Positions 3,509 through 52,981 of a stretch of DNA of 64,000 nt are shown here, piece after piece. This stretch comes from Verrucomicrobiota bacterium. GTDB lineage: Bacteria; Verrucomicrobiota; Verrucomicrobiia; Limisphaerales; UBA11358. The translations under genes were made by a program, and so were the position numbers. Position 1 is the first letter of the stretch; each line of letters begins with the position of its first letter. Under the pieces are notes generated by a model. That model searched no databases, was not told the DNA's origin, and worked only from the letters and a program-made list of their open reading frames with translations. The stretch spans positions 45,544 through 109,543 of the forward strand of contig JBEKKZ010000005.1 of assembly GCA_050010435.1 (NCBI GenBank), in the 5' to 3' direction.

Positions 3509-5257
3509 ATGAAATTCCGCTGGTCGCTCGCGCCGCCGCAACCGCTCCTTGCCGGTCAACTGGCGGCGCAGCTCAAAATCCCGCCCTTGCTCGCGCAATG
3601 CCTGCTCAATCGCGGTTTCAGCGAACCGTCCGCCATTGAAAATTTTCTCTCGCCGCGCCTCAAGAACCTTGCCGACCCTTTTTTGCTCCCGAACATGGCC
3701 GTCGCCGTCGAGCGATTGCTCCGCGCCCGCGAACAAAATGAATCACTGATCATCTTTGGCGATTATGACGTGGACGGCGTGACCTCCACCGCGCTCCTCG
3801 TCGAAGTTCTGCGTCCGCTTGGCTGGAAGGTGGATTTTTATCTGCCGAACCGCATGGACGAAGGCTACGGCCTCAGCGCCGACGGCGTCGAAAATTGCCT
3901 CAAAAAGTTTCCCGTAAAACTGCTGCTCGCCGTGGACTGCGGCTCGACAGCCGTGGAAACCATCAGCCTTCTGCGTTCGCGCGGCGTGGAGGTCATCGTC
4001 CTCGATCATCACCAGGTTTCTTCGCCCCCACCGGCCGCCGTGGCGTTGGTGAACCCGCAACTCCAAAGTAGCGCAGGCGTCCCGCCTGCACCGGACAGGC
4101 GTGACGCCTGTGCTACTTTCACCGAACTTTGCTCTGTTGGTCTGGCCTTCAAACTGGCTCATGCGCTGGTCAAACGCGGACGCGAAATTGGCTTGCCGGG
4201 CGCGGCGGAATTTGATTTGCGACCACTCCTCGATTTGGTCGCGCTCGGCACGATTGCCGACCTGGTGCCATTGACCGGTGAAAATCGGATTCTCACTTCC
4301 GCCGGTTTGCAACGCCTTAATATGACGCAGCGGCCCGGTTTGCTCGCGCTCAAGCAGGTCGCGCAGTGCCCGCCAATGCTCGGCGCTTACGAAGTGGGTT
4401 TTCAACTGGCCCCGCGCCTGAATGCCGCCGGCCGGCTCGAAACCGCGGAGGAATCGCTGCATTTGCTGCTCGCGCGCGATTTGGCCGGGGCCATGCCCAT
4501 CGCCCAAAGCCTCGACTCGCGAAACCGCGAACGCCAGAAGATTGAACGCGGCATCGTGGAGGAAGTCATCGGGGTCGTTAAATCAAAATTTGATCCGCAG
4601 ACTGATTTCGTCATCGTCGAAGGGCGATTGCTCTGGCACATCGGCGTGGTCGGCATCGTCGCGTCGCGCGTGCTGCAACAATTTTACCGCCCCACGATCA
4701 TTCTCGGCGGTGAAGGCGGTGAATGGCGCGGTTCGGGCCGCAGCATTGCGGGATTTGATCTGGCCGCCGCGTTGCGTGAGTGCGGCGATTTGCTCGTGCG
4801 GCACGGCGGTCACGCGATGGCGGCGGGACTGAGCCTTCAGCCGGACAAAGTGGACGCGCTCCGGCAGCGGTTGAATGAACTGGCGCGCCGCGCGTTGAAG
4901 CCGGAGGATTTGCAACCACCGGTGCGCCTCGATGCGGAAGTGGGTTTGGACGAAATGACTTTGGAATCGCTTGGCGAACTGGCGCGCTTGAAACCGGCCG
5001 GGCAGGGGAACCCGCCGGTGCAATTTTGCGCGCGCAGCGTCACGCACCAACGCCCGCTCCAGCGCATGGGCAAGGAGAAACAGCACGTCAAACTTTGGGT
5101 GACGGACGGCGCCGTGACGCACGAAGCCGTTTGGTGGAATGGCGGCGACGAGTCGTTGCCGGTCGGAAAATTTGATCTGGCGTTCGCGCCGCAGGTGAAT
5201 GAATTCAACGGCCGCCGCACGGTGCAATTAAAAGTGCTCGATTGGCGGGCGGCGTGA
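3509..5257 (+). CDS. recJ: Single-stranded-DNA-specific exonuclease RecJ
   Basis: 582 aa; DHH-family motifs IFGDYDVDGVTS, LLAVDCGS, VIVLDHHQ and DHHA1 motif GGHAMAAG. Carries a 17-codon family-A palindrome (SSAGVPPAPDRRDACAT). Confidence 0.9.
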   Translation: MKFRWSLAPPQPLLAGQLAAQLKIPPLLAQCLLNRGFSEPSAIENFLSPRLKNLADPFLLPNMAVAVERLLRAREQNESLIIFGDYDVDGVTSTALLVEVLRPLGWKVDFYLPNRMDEGYGLSADGVENCLKKFPVKLLLAVDCGSTAVETISLLRSRGVEVIVLDHHQVSSPPPAAVALVNPQLQSSAGVPPAPDRRDACATFTELCSVGLAFKLAHALVKRGREIGLPGAAEFDLRPLLDLVALGTIADLVPLTGENRILTSAGLQRLNMTQRPGLLALKQVAQCPPMLGAYEVGFQLAPRLNAAGRLETAEESLHLLLARDLAGAMPIAQSLDSRNRERQKIERGIVEEVIGVVKSKFDPQTDFVIVEGRLLWHIGVVGIVASRVLQQFYRPTIILGGEGGEWRGSGRSIAGFDLAAALRECGDLLVRHGGHAMAAGLSLQPDKVDALRQRLNELARRALKPEDLQPPVRLDAEVGLDEMTLESLGELARLKPAGQGNPPVQFCARSVTHQRPLQRMGKEKQHVKLWVTDGAVTHEAVWWNGGDESLPVGKFDLAFAPQVNEFNGRRTVQLKVLDWRAA

Positions 5258-20983: not shown

Positions 20984-21047
20984 TTCGGCAGAAAACCGCA
21001 CTACTCAAATTCCCTGGATCGTTCGGCGGTTTGCCGACCGCCGCTAC
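20984..21047 (+). repeat. Family G repeat, copy G2 (left GTAG arm truncated)
   Basis: TTCGGCAGAAAACCGCAC ... CGGCGGTTTGCCGACCGCCGCTAC aligns with G1 8289-8353. Confidence 0.7.
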
Positions 21048-27302: not shown

Positions 27303-27374
27303 CGGAGCGCCGGCCTCCGGCCCGGCGAGTGTTGAGATTCCAGTAAAAACGCGCCGGATCGGAAATCGGCGCTC
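27303..27374. repeat. Palindromic element, family F, copy F1
   Basis: GGAGCGCCGGCCTCCGGCCCGGCG agtgttgagattccagtaaaaa CGCGCCGGATCGGAAATCGGCGCTCC. Confidence 0.85.
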
Positions 27375-27385
27375 CGCTGTTGCCA

Positions 27386-27787
27386 TCAAAGTCGGGGGCA
27401 GTGTGATGCGCTCCTTGCGGACTTGCGCGGGACGCGATTTGGCCGGGACAATTTGGGAGGCTTCTTGCTGCCGGCGGCGATTTGAATCGCACGGTTCGCC
27501 CATGCCACCAGCACTTCCCGGTTTTCCAGCACGTCCGGCGGCACTTCGTGATAACCCATCGTCATCACGCGTCCCTTCATCTCGTAGGTGAACGGTCCCA
27601 TGCCGTGTGCAATATAGTCAGCCTGTGATTGCGCGTCCGTTTTGAAAAACAGCCGGCCCTCGTCCAAAATCCCGAAGAAGCGTCCGCCGGAATACAATCC
27701 ATGCGCGCCGAACATCGCCCTGGCGCGCCCGTCCGGCAACGCGCTCAACTGGTCGAGCACAAACTCTTTGAACGATTCATCCGCCAT
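27386..27787 (-). CDS. TfoX N-terminal-domain protein
   Basis: MADESFKEFVLDQLSALPDGRARAMFGAHGLYSGGRFFGILDEGRLFFKTD... (TfoX_N pattern). The track ORF extension to 28147 runs through repeats and was trimmed to ATG 27787. Confidence 0.7.
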   Translation of the reverse strand: MADESFKEFVLDQLSALPDGRARAMFGAHGLYSGGRFFGILDEGRLFFKTDAQSQADYIAHGMGPFTYEMKGRVMTMGYHEVPPDVLENREVLVAWANRAIQIAAGSKKPPKLSRPNRVPRKSARSASHCPRL

Positions 27788-27936
27788 TGAAGCAAAAGAT
27801 TTAACGCAAAGAACGCGACCTGTCACGCCGTAGCCGAAAGCGAAGGAGGAAGGTGCAAAGTGCAAAGCAATGGCGGAAACCCTGGGAGCGCCGCCGTCCC
27901 GGCGGCGTGGGCCGGGCGCATCCGAACACTGCCCCC

Positions 27937-28015
27937 GGAGCGCCGGCCTCCGGCCCGGCGAGTGGCGAGTGTTGAGATTCCAGTAGAAACGCGCCGGATC
28001 GGAAATCGGCGCTCC
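27937..28015. repeat. Palindromic element, family F, copy F2
   Basis: GGAGCGCCGGCCTCCGGCCCGGCG agtggcgagtgttgagattccagtagaaa CGCGCCGGATCGGAAATCGGCGCTCC; near-identical to F1. Confidence 0.85.
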
Positions 28016-48015: not shown

Positions 48016-50955
48016 ATGCACAACTTATTCAACACACTCCGGAAATTTGACCTCGGCGGCGGCAGGCAGGGATCGTTCTATTCCCTGCCCGCGCTGGAAG
48101 AGGCCGGCGTCGGGCCGGTTTCCCAATTGCCCGTCTCCATCCGCCTCGTGCTCGAGTCCGTGCTCCGCAATTGCGACGGCAAAAAGGTCAGCGAACAAAA
48201 CGTGCGCGCGCTGGCGAATTGGAAGCCAACTGAAACCCGCACGGAGGAAATTCCGTTTATCGTCGCGCGCATCGTGCTGCAGGATTTCACCGGCGTGCCG
48301 CTGCTGGTGGATTTGGCGGCGATGCGCTCCGCCGTTCAACGGCTGGGCAAAAATCCGAAAATCATCGAGCCACTCGTGCCGGTGGATCTGGTCGTGGACC
48401 ATTCGGTGCAGGTGGATTTTGCGGGCAGCGTGGATGCGTTTCAGAAGAATCTGGACATGGAATTCCGGCGCAATCGCGAGCGTTATCAATTTCTCAAATG
48501 GGGCATGCAGGCCTTCGACACGTTCAAGGTCGTGCCGCCCGGCATCGGCATCGTCCATCAGGTCAACTTGGAATATCTCGCCAAGGGCGTGCTCAGTAGC
48601 GCAGGCGTCTCGCCTGCACAGAGCAATGGGAATGCAGCCGGGACGGCTGCGCTACTTTATTATCCGGACACGCTGGTTGGCACGGATTCGCACACGACAA
48701 TGATCAATAGCCTCGGCATCGTGGGTTGGGGTGTCGGCGGTATCGAGGCTGAAGCCGGCATGCTGGGCCAGCCGGTTTATTTCCTCACGCCGGACGTCGT
48801 CGGCGTGCATCTCACCGGCGCGTTGCGCGAGGGCGTCACCGCCACCGACCTCGCGCTCACCATCACGGAAATGCTCCGCAAGGCAAAGGTCGTCGGCAAG
48901 TTCGTCGAATTTTTCGGTCCCGGCGCGGCGGCGTTGCCGGTTGTGGACCGCGCGACGATGGCGAACATGGCGCCCGAATACGGCGCGACGATGGGTTTCT
49001 TCCCGATTGATGCCGAGTGCGTAAATTATCTCCGCGCCACGGGCCGCAGCGAAGAGCTTTGCCTGACCTACGAAAATTATTACCGCGCGCAGGGTTTGTT
49101 CGGCATTCCCAGGAAGGGCGACATCGCCTACTCGCAGGAACTGGAACTCAACCTTGGCATGGTGGTTCCCAGCGTGGCCGGCCCGAAGCGCCCGCAGGAT
49201 CGCATCGAACTGCCGAAGTTGAGAGACGCGTTCATGAAGGCGATGACGCGTTCGGTCATGGACAATGGCTTCGGCAAGCGCTTCGAGGAGCTGTATGTAA
49301 CCGCGCGGGTCAACACGGCGCGGGAGGCCCATCCGCCCATTAATCACAGCTATGGCCATCGCAAGCTGGGCGTGGATCCCAGCGAATCCGAGATGCGCGA
49401 CCAGCACCCCGCGCCCCACACCTCGGAGCATGTGCCTTCCACGACGTTTCGCGGGGTGCAGTCCGAAATTCGCCACGGCAGCGTGCTCATCGCGGCCATC
49501 ACCAGTTGTACGAACACGTCGAATCCCAGCGTCATGCTCGCCGCCGGTTTGCTGGCGAAGAAGGCCGTGGAATGCGGACTCAGCGTGAATCCCGTCGTCA
49601 AAACCTCGCTCGCCCCCGGCTCGCGTGTGGTGAGCGATTACCTGGACCGGACCGGCCTGCAATTCTACCTCGATCAGCTCGGCTTCAACCTCGTGGGTTA
49701 CGGCTGCACGACTTGCATCGGCAACTCCGGTCCCCTGCCGGCCACGGTCGAAGACGCGATCAACAAATACGACCTGGTCGTGGCCTCCGTCCTTTCGGGC
49801 AACCGCAACTTCGAGGCGCGCGTGCATCAGAGCATCAAGGCGAACTTCCTCATGTCGCCACCGCTCGTTGTCGCCTTTGCGCTCGCGGGCCGCGTGGACA
49901 TTGACCTGAGCCGCGAGCCGATCGGCACGGGCAAGAATGGCCGGCCGGTTTATCTTCGCGACCTCTGGCCAAGCCTGCGTGAAATCCGCGACCTCATGCA
50001 AACCGCGTTGCAGCCGGAAGTTTATCGCAGGCTGTTCAAGGATTTTGCGGCGCAGAATCCCAAGTGGAACGAAATCCCCTCGTTCACCGGCAATGTTTTC
50101 GTATGGGACCGCCGGTCCACTTACATACAGGAACCGCCGTTCTTCGAGAAGTTCCTGCTGCAAGCCGGGGAAATTCGTGAAATCAAGGGTGCGCGAGCGC
50201 TGGCCATTTTTGGCGACAGCGTGACGACCGACCACATTTCACCCGCTGGATCCATCAAGAAGACATCGCCGGCTGGAAAATATCTCATCGAAAACGGTGT
50301 CGAACCGGCGGACTTCAACAGCTACGGCTCGCGGCGGGGCAACGACCGGGTGATGACGCGCGGCACGTTCGCCAATGTCCGCATCAAAAACCTCATGGTG
50401 CCTGGAGTTGAAGGTGGGGTGACCAGATTTTTTGGTAGCCGCGTTCGTGAGAATGCGGATGCCACAGGTGAAAAGCCCGGCGCTTTCACAAGCGCCGCTA
50501 CGGGGGAGGTGATGCCGATTTACGACGCCGCCATGAAATATCGGACTGCCGGCGTTCCGCTGGTGGTGATTGCCGGACAGGAGTACGGCACCGGTTCATC
50601 CCGTGACTGGGCTGCGAAAGGCACGAACCTGCTCGGCGTGAAGGCCGTCGTGGCGCAGAGCTTCGAGCGCATCCACCGCAGCAACCTTGTCGGCCTGGGC
50701 GTGCTGCCGCTGCAATTCAAGGAAGGCACGACGGCACAGACGCTCAACCTCGATGGCACGGAGACCTACGACATCGTCGGCCTTGGCGCGAATTTGAAAC
50801 CGCAGCAGGATTTGACGCTGAAAATCACGCGCCAGGACGGCGGCGTGGAAGATGTGCCCGTGCGTTGCCGGATTGATACGCCGATTGAAATTGATTACTA
50901 CCAGCATGGCGGCATTTTGCCCTACGTGCTGCGGCAGTTGGTGGCGAAGGCGTGA
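48016..50955 (+). CDS. acnA: Aconitate hydratase A
   Basis: 979 aa; [33 protein letters not shown] Fe-S ligand regions, C-terminal swivel domain ([19 protein letters not shown]). Two palindromes are translated in frame. Confidence 0.95.
48595..48656. repeat. REP-like palindrome, family A, translated inside acnA
   Basis: AGTAGCGCAGGCGTCTCGCCTGCA ... TGCAGCCGGGACGGCTGCGCTACT; codon-aligned, reads [21 protein letters not shown]. Confidence 0.9.
50435..50501. repeat. REP-like palindrome, family D-like, translated inside acnA
   Basis: GTAGCCGCGTTCGTGAGAATGCGG ... CCGGCGCTTTCACAAGCGCCGCTAC; reads [23 protein letters not shown] between the conserved GVTRF and [13 protein letters not shown]. Confidence 0.8.
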
Positions 50956-50961
50956 GCAATG

Positions 50962-51028
50962 GGAACGCCGGCCTCCGGCACGGCGCGATGTTATAGCCGA
51001 AACAAGCCGTGCCAAAGGCCGGCGTTCC
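50962..51028. repeat. Palindromic element, family F, copy F3
   Basis: GGAACGCCGGCCTCCGGCACGGC gcgatgttatagccgaaacaa GCCGTGCCAAAGGCCGGCGTTCC. Confidence 0.85.
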
Positions 51029-51032
51029 AAAA

Positions 51033-51791
51033 ATGAAACCGCGAACCAAGCGCGAATATCTGTGCCAACTTGTTGAGGGGAAGAATAAAGCGTTCCGTCC
51101 GCTTACAGATGAAGAGAAGGCGCTGGGCTTCCATGGCTGGCATGAGCGCGGTTATCTGCCGCATTGCGATTATCCTGGTCTCGTTCAATTCGTCACGTTT
51201 CGCCTTGCCGATTCCATGCCAGCCTCACGTCGCGGTGAGTGGGAACATTTGCTCAAGATTGAAGACGATCGGGAGAAGCGCACGAGACTGGAGGAATATC
51301 TTGATCGCGGAGTTGGTGAATGTCATTTGCGCGATCCGCGAATCGCCAAAATTGCCGAAGACGCCATGCTTCATTTTCATAACGAACGCTACGAACTGCT
51401 CGCCTGGTGCGTGATGCTAAATCACGTCCATGTTCTTGTTCATGTCTGGCAGACGCCGCTATGGAAGACGGTGCGAAGTTGGAAACACTTCGTCCAAACA
51501 CAGGCGAATCGATTGCTTGCGGAACACCGGCTTCCAGCACGGCGCGGTGGTGAAAGGAACAGCAACGAGCCGGGCCGGAGGCCGGCGCTCCAATGGCAGC
51601 GGGAATACGGGGATACATTCATGCGGGATGGAGATCAGGAAAGGAAAGCCGTTCGTTACATCGAAAACAATCCGGTGACGGCAAGACTGTGTCGCGTGGA
51701 CAAGGAGTGGCCTTTCAGCAGCGCAAGGTTTCGGGATGAATTTCATCGGCTGTTGATTCCCGCCGGAGCGCCGATCTCCGAATCGGCGTGA
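51033..51791 (+). CDS. REP-associated tyrosine transposase (RAYT; IS200/IS605 Y1 HUH family)
   Basis: YLPHCDYPGLVQFVTFRLADSMP, HUH motif NHVHVLVH, QWQREYGDTFMRD, catalytic Tyr in AVRYIENNPVTARL, WPFSS. ATG 51033 preferred over GTG 51009. Confidence 0.85.
   Translation: MKPRTKREYLCQLVEGKNKAFRPLTDEEKALGFHGWHERGYLPHCDYPGLVQFVTFRLADSMPASRRGEWEHLLKIEDDREKRTRLEEYLDRGVGECHLRDPRIAKIAEDAMLHFHNERYELLAWCVMLNHVHVLVHVWQTPLWKTVRSWKHFVQTQANRLLAEHRLPARRGGERNSNEPGRRPALQWQREYGDTFMRDGDQERKAVRYIENNPVTARLCRVDKEWPFSSARFRDEFHRLLIPAGAPISESA
51521..51591. repeat. Palindromic element, family F, copy F4, translated inside the RAYT gene
   Basis: GGAACACCGGCTTCCAGCACGGCG ... GCCGGGCCGGAGGCCGGCGCTCC; encodes about 24 aa (EHRLPARRGGERNSNEPGRRPAL) between ANRLL and QWQREY. 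Confidence 0.8.
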
Positions 51792-51835
51792 GAATCCGGC
51801 GCCAGCCAACGCGCCGAATCGGAGTGCGGCGCTCC
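51765..51835. repeat. Palindromic element, family F, copy F5
   Basis: GGAGCGCCGATCTCCGAATCGGCG tgagaatccggcgccagccaac GCGCCGAATCGGAGTGCGGCGCTCC. The RAYT stop codon TGA (51789-51791) is in the loop. Confidence 0.85.
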
Positions 51836-51959
51836 CATTGCATCTCGAGGTTTCTCCGGTTTTACCACCGCCACCGCACCGGCCCTGGCCAGATGTGAAC
51901 AAATAAGCCTTGAACCCGCGGATTATTGGCTCACATGATGCCCGTGGTTTTTCTTAATC

Positions 51960-52981
51960 ATGATCGAACTCAAGGTTCAATGCGACTGCGGTCAGAAGTA
52001 CAAGTTCGACGTTGATCCGATCAACGGCCAGATGCCCTTCACCGTGGCTTGTCCGGTCTGCGGTGCTGATGGGACGGAAAAGGCGAACGCGCTCCTGCAG
52101 CAGATGCTGCCTGAGCTGGCGGCTCAACCGGCGGAGCCACCGGTGCCGGTTGTGACGCAACCGAGATTGCGCATCAGCAGTTCCCTTCCTGCAACTTCGC
52201 CGGCATCACCGCCACCCCTGGCCCCGGTGCCGGCCGTGGCGCCGCCACCTCCCATCGGCGCGTTGCGGTCAGCCCCGGAGGCGGCGGCAAAAAAAACCGT
52301 GGGCAACCCAGCTTTGGGCTGGGTTTGCTGGGCGGTGCCCTCGGCGCCTTGGTGGGGACGTTGATTTATTTTTTGATTTTCAAATATACCGGGTTTCGAA
52401 TCAAGTTGCTGGCCGTGGGAGTTGGCGCGCTGGCCGGCTGGGGCGCGGAACTTTTGGGCCGGGGCGAGGGCAGCAAGGAATTGGGCGGGATCACCGCCGT
52501 GTTGGTATTGGCGGGCATCATCGGTGCACAATATTTGGTGGCCTTGGGCTGGTGGCATGAATTTTCCCCCGCCCAAATCTTCAATTCAGCCTACACCAAC
52601 AGCGTTAGGGAGGCGAAGGAGGTGGTCAAGGCGGTCCCCTCCGGTTCCGACGAGGAGATCCGGAGTTACCTGGCCCGGGAACAGGCCAAGGAGAATGCCG
52701 AAGCGGGCGAGAAGCCCAATCCGGCGTCCATTACGAAAGAGGACATCAAGGAATTCCGGGAAAAGAGTCTTCCGGAATTCCAGGAACTGGCCAGTGGTAA
52801 AATGAACAAGGACCAATACAACGCCAAAAACGGAATTGACCCCACGAAATTAAAAAGCGAGGAGGACAGCGAGGAAGGCACTTTCAAGGGGATTTTCCTG
52901 CTCTTGCTGCTGAGCAAAATCAACCTCGTTTCCTTGTGCGGGGCGGCCGGCCTGGCTTACAAAATGAGCACCAACGCGTGA
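51960..52981 (+). CDS. Zinc-ribbon / Pro-rich linker / 4-TM membrane protein that needs a -1 frameshift at an A8 run (or is a frameshifted pseudogene or a homopolymer sequencing error)
   Basis: Frame-0 ORF 51960..52364 (CDCG...CPVCG ribbon, Pro-rich linker) ends 23 codons after the A8 run. The -1 frame is open from before the run and continues ...KKNRGQPSFGLGLLGGALGALVGTLIYFLIF... to 52981. Confidence 0.55.
52289..52328 (+). promoter_or_regulatory. Candidate -1 ribosomal frameshift signal
   Basis: Slippery A_AAA_AAA (52289-52295, codon-phased in frame 0), 7-nt spacer, then a 10-bp stem with one bulge: GCAACCCAGC (52303-52312) pairs with GCTGGGTTTGC (52318-52328). Confidence 0.45.

Follow-up and report, generated by a model that had tools for sequence, protein, structure and literature searches.

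A RAYT gene of Verrucomicrobiota with flanking REPINs and an old in-frame REPIN copy, a probable REPtron

The closest described relatives of the locus reported here are the tnpAREP genes of subclass 2.4, which encode tyrosine transposases associated with repetitive extragenic palindromes (REPs) and which have in-frame REP insertions between the motifs HuH and Y as a hallmark (Quentin et al., 2018, BMC Genomics 19:475, PMC6006769). Subclass 2.4 TnpAREP is equivalent to group 4 in the RAYT (REP-associated tyrosine transposase) classification of Bertels et al. (2017, PMC5581495). We analysed a 64,000-nucleotide stretch (the window) of a Verrucomicrobiota bacterium (assembly GCA_050010435.1, contig JBEKKZ010000005.1, positions 45,544 to 109,543), in which a RAYT gene is accompanied by three inverted REP doublets (REPINs), one in front of it, one inside its reading frame, and one at its end. 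Together they probably represent a REPtron, i.e. a domesticated, chromosomally fixed Y1 HUH transposase of Verrucomicrobiota (Limisphaerales/Pedosphaera-like) with three cognate REPIN copies, the internal one being old and maintained at the DNA level. As Quentin et al. (2018) reported intragenic REPs, the core of the finding has already been described, and the original prediction for this locus, made by a model from the letters alone, overstated the case in calling a RAYT colonised by its own presumed substrate unusual. What is newly added is the phylum, the GGAG/GGAA foot of the repeats, the site of the insert between αC and β4, its deep conservation, and its concerted evolution with the flanking repeats.

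The module comprises the following features, REPINs being given without a strand.

50962 to 51028: 5' REPIN, units 50962-50985 (+) and 51005-51028 (-); inverted repeats 50962-50984/51006-51028, 91% complementary
51033 to 51791, plus strand: RAYT/TnpAREP gene, 252 aa; the alternative GTG start at 51009 gives 260 aa
51153 to 51164, plus strand: YLPH N-terminal family motif, residues 41-44; among 120 homologs L42 and P43 are invariant, Y41 and H44 at least 90% conserved
51420 to 51431, plus strand: HUH motif NHVH, residues 130-133, on strand β3
51521 to 51591: internal in-frame REPIN, units 51521-51544 (+) and 51568-51591 (-); encodes E164-Q187 (EHRLPARRGGERNSNEPGRRPALQ) in the αC-β4 loop
51594 to 51626, plus strand: β4 segment WQREYGDTFMR, equivalent of E. 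coli TnpAREP W94-R104, the GTAG-foot contact region
51657 to 51659, plus strand: codon of the catalytic Tyr209 in the motif YIENNP; aligns with Y115 of 4ER8 and is invariant in the alignment
51765 to 51835: 3' REPIN, units 51765-51788 (+) and 51812-51835 (-); arms 51765-51788/51812-51835, 88% complementary

The RAYT open reading frame (ORF) contains the YLPH motif, the β1 strand VQFVTFRLADSMP, NHVHVLV, and RYIENNP, with NHVH at residues 130-133, WQ at 188-189, and YIENNP at 209-214. ATG 51033 is preferred as the start because the N-termini of homologs (MKPQTKREYL and similar) begin there. A database search yielded 2327 homologs, the best 120 of which have 68-90% identity, and the source names of the homologs lead to Verrucomicrobiota and Limisphaerales. 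A profile built from 19 homologs matched a single sequence in the PDB, the E. coli TnpAREP of entry 4ER8 (E = 1.8e-6). NHVH, WQ, and YIENNP align to HMH, W94-Q95, and Y115-P120 of 4ER8, with W188-Q189 on W94-Q95, Tyr209 on Y115, and N213 on N119. The AlphaFold2 (AF2) model has a mean predicted local distance difference test score (pLDDT) of 67, with 70-84 in the core, and its elements follow the order β1-αA-αB-β2-β3-αC-β4-αD, as expected for the Y1_Tnp fold. Its best Foldseek match is again 4ER8_A (E = 3.3e-5, probability 1.00, template modeling score on the target 0.61), followed by the IS200/IS608/ISDra2 TnpA proteins. Among the signatures in Table 1 of PMC6006769, only that of subclass 2.4 fits the triple NHVH / WQ / YIENNP. 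The protein is thus a RAYT/TnpAREP-type Y1 HUH transposase with the motif signature of subclass 2.4; the type of enzyme and the motifs had been predicted correctly. No second RAYT was found in the 64-kb window.

Each REP unit has 24 nt and consists of a GGAG/GGAA foot, the stem CGCCGnn, a short loop, and nnCGGCG. Two inverted units with a spacer of about 19-24 nt make up a palindrome of 67-71 nt that forms one long hairpin; therefore, each of the three palindromes is a REP doublet, or REPIN. The internal pair 51521-51543/51569-51591 was detected via the direct-repeat families D1/D2 and the cross-pairs I5/I6. Folded as single-stranded DNA (ssDNA), the 5', internal, and 3' REPINs reach -28.8, -24.1, and -29.3 kcal/mol, respectively (z = -6.8, -3.3, and -4.4 against shuffled controls), and all three were found where they had been predicted. 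The 5' palindrome, described earlier as overlapping the start region of the ORF, does so only when GTG 51009 is taken as the start, for it ends 4 nt before ATG 51033. The 3' palindrome indeed holds the end of the gene including the stop codon, the codons inside it being the last 8 (GAPISESA) instead of about 9, and TGA (51789-51791) follows directly after its left arm.

Compared with subclass 2.4 TnpAREP, this RAYT has the same signature (NH[IFV]H / WQ / YIxNNP; here NHVH / WQ / YIENNP), an extra conserved N-terminal motif, REPs flanking the gene, and an in-frame REP between HuH and Y. Different from it, the locus belongs to Verrucomicrobiota (Verrucomicrobia are absent from the text and supplements of PMC6006769), its repeats have a GGAG/GGAA foot instead of GT[AG]G, and its insert lies between αC and β4, whereas PMC6006769 models the 2.4 insertion domain in the β3/αC loop and terms it peripheral. 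According to the same paper, αC-β4 insertions of other subclasses lie near the REP-recognition region. That paper reports neither the conservation among orthologs nor the covariation, the concerted evolution with the flanking repeats, or the frozen synonymous sites documented here. The E. coli TnpAREP/RAYT (YafM, 4ER8; Messing et al., 2012, PMC3479197) shares the Y1 HUH fold, the HUH, W-Q, and Y-I-x-x-N-P motifs, and a REP-flanked gene. However, it is 15% identical, belongs to subclass 2.2 (DHLH / WE / YIHYNP), and has 165 aa with neither the N-terminal YLPH extension nor an intragenic REP. Its REPs have a GTAG foot, and its foot contacts E100/H101 are D/T in the window's RAYT; the E. coli contact residues, including W99 at the foot, are listed in the legend of Fig. 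S11 of PMC6006769.

The REPIN-RAYT systems of Pseudomonas and enterobacteria (Bertels and Rainey, 2011, PMC3116915; Bertels et al., 2017, PMC5581495) resemble this one in their inverted REP doublets forming a hairpin, their fixed REPIN-flanked RAYT locus, and their multiple RAYT paralogs within one genome, which have a separate REP type each, but they belong to groups 2 and 3, have GTAG REPs, and lack an in-frame copy inside the RAYT. The intragenic REPs and Rickettsia palindromic elements described by Di Nocera et al. (2013, PMC3733652) are likewise in-frame REP singles or dimers that encode 20-30 aa in otherwise normal proteins, and the numbers of intragenic GTAG repeats were reported to be highest in the verrucomicrobium Opitutus terrae (PMC3733652); unlike here, neither an insertion into the RAYT gene itself nor GGAG-foot families are reported in that paper. 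TnpA of the IS200/IS605 group (IS608, ISDra2) has the same fold and a gene flanked by subterminal hairpins, but these elements are mobile and multicopy, whereas the window's RAYT type stays at one conserved locus by the aconitase gene acnA and its repeats are dispersed independently. We took 80 homologous loci from genome assemblies (labelled with numbers of the type L001). In 45 of them, the RAYT homolog lies directly downstream of acnA; this synteny marks the RAYT as a fixed chromosomal gene and not an IS-like one.

The base architecture of the family, derived from these 80 loci, has 89 aa from YLPH to HUH, 39 aa from HUH to W, and 21 aa from W to Y. Insert-less relatives and outgroups read ...ANKLLGRTGRFWQPEYW and have the 39-aa HUH-to-W distance, which is 53-72 aa in the window's clade and 58 aa in the window itself. 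Since the short loop is found in outgroups as well as in some orthologs, the internal palindrome is a true insertion replacing an ancestral G-R-x-G turn. The 71-nt copy encodes 24 residues (E164-Q187) in frame between the HUH and Tyr motifs, as had been stated, but relative to insert-less orthologs the net gain is +19 aa. The encoded segment is an Arg/Pro-rich surface loop between αC and β4. A check by structure modelling, proposed along with the prediction, places it in a low-pLDDT loop between helix 143-165 and strand 188-196, with residues 165-185 predicted to be disordered (pLDDT < 50). The segment ERRxPxRR...RRxALQ is present in 119 of the best 120 homologs. At the nucleotide level, at least 34 homologous genes (identity about 60-90%) have the insert at the same place, from HUH+101/104 to HUH+172/175 nt, and the majority of them directly follow acnA. 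Of 37 loci examined for their reading frame, 31 have it intact. L033 has a stop codon in its internal REPIN (ER*SPDR), and L046 and L057 have apparent frameshifts; these are probably pseudogenised orthologs or assembly errors.

In the homolog P0003, the left-arm peptide of the insert stands as a tandem duplicate (LAERRLPARR LAERRLPARR). In L014, REP units at 3509/3759/4009 have a 250-nt period and the spacers of the internal and 3' REPINs are identical, as if the 3' part of the gene had been duplicated in tandem along with its REPIN. Related genomes contain several paralogous RAYTs with a separate REP type for each, and two paralogous RAYT clades possess a second in-frame REP/REPIN site, located after EWEHLLKIED and adding +9 to +47 aa. 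It is at HUH-170 to -280 nt in the clade of L045-L063 and L071, and in-frame REPs/REPINs occupy it also in the clade of L066 and L080. The REP type at the second site is GGAGCGCGGAGCATTGCTCCGCG, read RSDAPRS, in one clade and GGAGCGCCGGTCTGCGACCGGCTT, read GAPACSRL, in the other.

We aligned 31 internal REPINs gap-free over 71 nt and inspected their pairing and covariation. In the long hairpin, 88.5% of cells are paired, compared with 33-42% in slid controls. Changes on both sides occur at 11 pairs (71 cells), and none of 500 shuffles reached the observed covariation. The arms of the internal copy are as complementary (20.6/24) as those of the 5' extragenic copy (20.5/24), the 3' copy having 18.8/24. 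Single REP units are imperfect palindromes as well, with 81% of cells paired and double changes at two variable stem positions; this support for a hairpin per unit is weaker than that for the long hairpin because the stem register differs between subtypes. The arms are also frozen at synonymous positions. Of 32 conserved four-fold sites elsewhere in the RAYT gene, every one varies, the most frequent third base accounting for 57% on average, whereas four of seven such sites in the arms are invariant and one is at 97%; the remaining two change together with the positions they pair with.

Several subtypes of the variable unit core exist (GGCTTCCAGCA, GGTCTCCGACC, GATCTCCGAATC, GAGCACCGCCTC, GATCTCCTGATC, and others), and the gene tree shows repeated switches between them. 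Compared with its own 5' flank, the internal core is different at 1.24 of 13 positions; the value is 4.2 for the flanks of other loci (permutation p <= 1e-4) and 4.5 of 13 for the internal copies of other loci. For the 3' flank, the differences are 2.9/13 with the own and 4.3/13 with other loci. In 1137 of 1260 locus pairs, the internal core is closer to its own flank than to its ortholog, and the unusual three-unit internal array of L038 is mirrored in its own 5' flank. Taken together, the kept palindrome, the frozen synonymous sites, and the arms tracking the flanking subtype indicate that a process at the DNA level maintains the internal copy; selection acting on the peptide leaves the upkeep of the palindrome unexplained.

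The REPtron that these data probably reflect could work as follows. The RAYT enzyme would nick and join ssDNA at REP hairpins, and REPs and REPINs would accumulate in and around its own gene as a consequence, with only in-frame REPIN copies in permissive loops surviving. The internal REPIN would be old and vertically inherited, and would be kept a good palindrome of the local REP subtype by REP-templated repair, by conversion or replacement at the occupied site, or by selection for recognition by the co-evolving RAYT. The repeats of this family (family F) are the presumed substrate of the RAYT because the 5' REPIN slot is filled in 36 of the 37 related loci tabulated and the flanking subtype co-varies with the internal copy. 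The anatomy, the polarity of the insertion, its conservation, the covariation, the concerted evolution, and the frozen synonymous sites are observed here, whereas we infer both the activity of the enzyme and the process that homogenises the arms; possible processes are arm-limited conversion, replacement from the REPIN pool of the genome, and selection for recognition by the co-evolving enzyme.

Several observations weigh against this reading. The profile scores are low: Pfam Y1_Tnp (PF01797) does match the RAYT, as anticipated, but with 19 bits it stays under the cut-off of 23, and NCBIfam REP_Tyr_transpos (NF047646) gives 58.7 bits (5.9e-16) against a cut-off of 80. These are the only family matches of the protein. 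The inserts and the N-terminal extension lower the score, and many close homologs have precomputed PF01797 matches. The insert-bearing genes are not monophyletic, as the insert-less L043 is sister to the insert-bearing L038 in 100 of 100 bootstrap replicates of a tree on Kimura distances. The junction of the L038 insert, after G-R-F, is slightly different and so is its unit structure, which together indicate an independent gain. A single ancient insertion is therefore too simple. The spacers of internal and 5' REPINs are hardly more identical within loci (0.55) than between loci (0.53, p = 0.065). As the spacers are not homogenised, the data do not support wholesale gene conversion with the adjacent 5' REPIN as donor. 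Two residues of the window's own protein deviate: G193 (51609-51611) stands where all 120 homologs have Trp, the counterpart of E. coli W99, which is a REP-foot contact residue per PMC6006769, and H165 (51525-51527) replaces an Arg in the left REP arm, weakening the left-arm stem. The window's copy could be impaired by W193G and R165H. Finally, the data also allow a functional role for the DNA element or the peptide. L129 (51417-51419) replaces a 95%-conserved Pro before the HUH motif. The window's RAYT has 5 deviations at conserved columns, and the family median is 4. This count is ordinary, with W193G staying notable. By its sequence, the copy does not look generally decayed, and its enzymatic activity is uncertain.

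Among the alternatives, one that we consider unlikely is that the internal REPIN is a selected cis-regulatory hairpin, in mRNA or transient ssDNA, which throttles RAYT expression via the RAYT or the translation/decay machinery, with the REPINs at start and stop co-acting. It would fit a palindrome and synonymous sites conserved beyond the need of the peptide and over at least 34 homologous genes, a 5' REPIN that in 14 loci stops 2-10 nt short of the ATG (elsewhere the gap is 42-52 nt), and the stop codon inside the 3' REPIN in most orthologs. However, pairing in mRNA predicts an excess of G:U over A:C, and sense-strand G:T mismatches number 33 versus 42 antisense-type A:C ones (p = 0.36). This balance argues against selection specifically on mRNA pairing, which we rejected. 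Moreover, the insert-less orthologs L029, L030, and L043 look intact, an in-frame REPIN is likewise found in acnA, where autoregulation would be senseless, and the region 50700-52100 yielded no Rfam RNA family, promoter, or terminator above background.

Somewhat less probable still is that the Arg-rich loop ERRxPxRR...RRxALQ encoded by the REPIN has been co-opted into the DNA-binding surface, so that REP subtype and recognition loop change together. The E. coli counterpart of the αC-β4 loop borders the REP-hairpin contacts K82, T85, H86, K91, R97, and R98; Quentin et al. (PMC6006769) suggest that αC-β4 insertions of subclasses 2.2 and 2.6 may aid DNA binding; and the frame ERRxPxRR is constant across the main clade, giving 5-6 Arg. 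On the other hand, the segment is predicted to be disordered, its variable residues merely mirror the DNA subtype, and independent insertions use other frames (GAP..., RSDAPRS). The catalytic motifs are all kept in P0091 with a partial deletion and in the three insert-less orthologs, and a function of the peptide needs neither a palindrome nor frozen synonymous sites. We give a comparably low chance to the idea that the in-frame REPIN is a working part, in that the same 71 nt serve as a substrate-like hairpin of the current REP subtype and code for the Arg-rich recognition loop, or that the hairpin is a built-in autoregulatory binding site. If true, such a dual-role REPIN would physically couple the specificity of the enzyme to the sequence of its substrate, the loop residues changing with the subtype.

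The original prediction spoke of a gene interrupted and colonised by a REPIN. As a recent accident, a strike that probably inactivated the RAYT in this genome, this is very improbable. W193G at the otherwise invariant Trp, P129L beside the HUH motif, and the internal palindrome being the weakest of the three (z = -3.3) point in its direction. The homolog alignment contradicts it, since the insert has the same position in nearly all of the best homologs and in the homologous loci counted above; the mostly intact frame, the conserved catalytic motifs, and the typical number of deviations also speak against it. That the palindromic segment is ancestral, the short loop a secondary deletion, and the dispersed repeats derived from the gene would suit the nesting of the insert-less L043 and L029/L030 within or near the insert-bearing clade, but is hardly credible given the short loop with its G-R-x-G-x-F-W pattern in all outgroup clades (L078, L065/74/75, L073, L045-L071, L066/L080) and in E. 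coli TnpAREP, the occurrence of the same REP family outside genes and in acnA, and the independent gain in L038.

Family-F repeats are concentrated at the RAYT. The REP unit pattern occurs 12 times in the window, where 1.4 occurrences are expected, and none of 100 shuffles reached 12. Five doublets are present in the 64 kb, three of them at the RAYT. Across related loci, the density is 2.41 units/kb in the RAYT module and 0.16 outside (27 units outside modules in 171 kb), a 15-fold difference. The presence of the family elsewhere, on which the prediction depended, is borne out by the two remaining doublets.

27304 to 27375, no strand: dispersed family-F REPIN away from the RAYT
27937 to 28015, no strand: second dispersed family-F REPIN, which together with 27304 to 27375 brackets a TfoX_N gene

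The bracketed TfoX_N ORF lies at about 27440-27790 on the minus strand (Pfam 1e-25). A 17-nt stretch from a TfoX_N-domain gene is shared by five copies in the window (24165, 27075, 27733, 28885, 33468), so that TfoX_N paralogs probably form a cluster here.

Every unit of the window and the related loci has the foot GGAG or GGAA instead of the canonical GT[AG]G, so that the flanking repeats are not GTAG-type, as noted at the outset. The contrast is softer than it seemed, because the GTAG family GTAGCGCAGGCG-TCC-CGCCTGC of the window has the same architecture as family F and a foot one base apart. This family occurs mostly as doublets (4068/4116, 10786/10873, 36354/36412/36438, 58902/58956). A second GTAG-foot family, GTAGCGGCGGTC..., is present at 21047, 28868, 33449, 43548, and 44724. 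No RAYT gene for the GTAG-foot families was found within the 64-kb window.

The neighbour that anchors the synteny also carries an in-frame REPIN.

48016 to 50955, plus strand: aconitase gene acnA, conserved upstream neighbour and synteny anchor (Pfam Aconitase 4e-155, Aconitase_C 2e-38)

The in-frame REPIN of acnA is GTAG-type (48596-48655, 63 nt) and encodes 21 residues between EYLAKGVL and YYPDTLVG. In orthologs the loop is empty (15 nt) or holds the same GTAG REPIN, family-F REPINs (SERRxPxR...GAP), or yet other REP families, with at least five different families across L003, L005, L008, L009, L013, L017, L021, L026, L031, and others. On comparison of these orthologous sequences, the acnA loop is a recurrent hot spot of in-frame insertion and replacement. 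It parallels the recB site that holds different REPs in two Xanthomonas species (PMC3733652). The states of the acnA loop thus indicate that it is generally characteristic of these genomes to have REPINs in frame within permissive loops and to exchange them at sites already filled; Di Nocera et al. (2013) made the same observation for Opitutus terrae.

The RAYT tree and the aconitase tree do not agree in full. L002 and the window are 89% identical in the RAYT and 77% in the AcnA C-terminus. L017 and L043 share, at 94.6% DNA identity, a stretch of about 1.46 kb in which the aconitase 3' end is included, and their RAYT lineages are different; L043 has an extra gene of 404 aa between acnA and the RAYT. 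The disagreements of L002, L013, L017, and L043 with the window suggest recombinational exchange of the module. The record titles of 11 loci (L004, L010, L017, L020, L021, L023, L027, L031, L032, L038, L041) name Bifidobacteriaceae, Bifidobacterium, Klebsiella, Hyphomicrobium, or Kapaibacterium. Since their acnA-RAYT gene order is that of Verrucomicrobiota, these bins probably bear wrong labels.

The domestication of a transposase along with a vertically inherited population of non-autonomous elements is chiefly exemplified by RAYT-REPIN systems, and how enzyme and repeats stay matched in the long term is the question at stake. The clade described here offers a natural experiment, as a REPIN is locked in the reading frame of the enzyme at a fixed position in dozens of genomes and its arms still switch subtype with the extragenic copies. 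REP-directed homogenisation or replacement would thus act on occupied sites even under coding constraint. With this locus, the range of RAYTs with intragenic REPs comes to include Verrucomicrobiota and a REP with a GGAG foot, and the D/T in place of E. coli E100/H101 would be useful for defining how the foot is recognised. The acnA hot spot suggests that the same process shapes housekeeping proteins as well.

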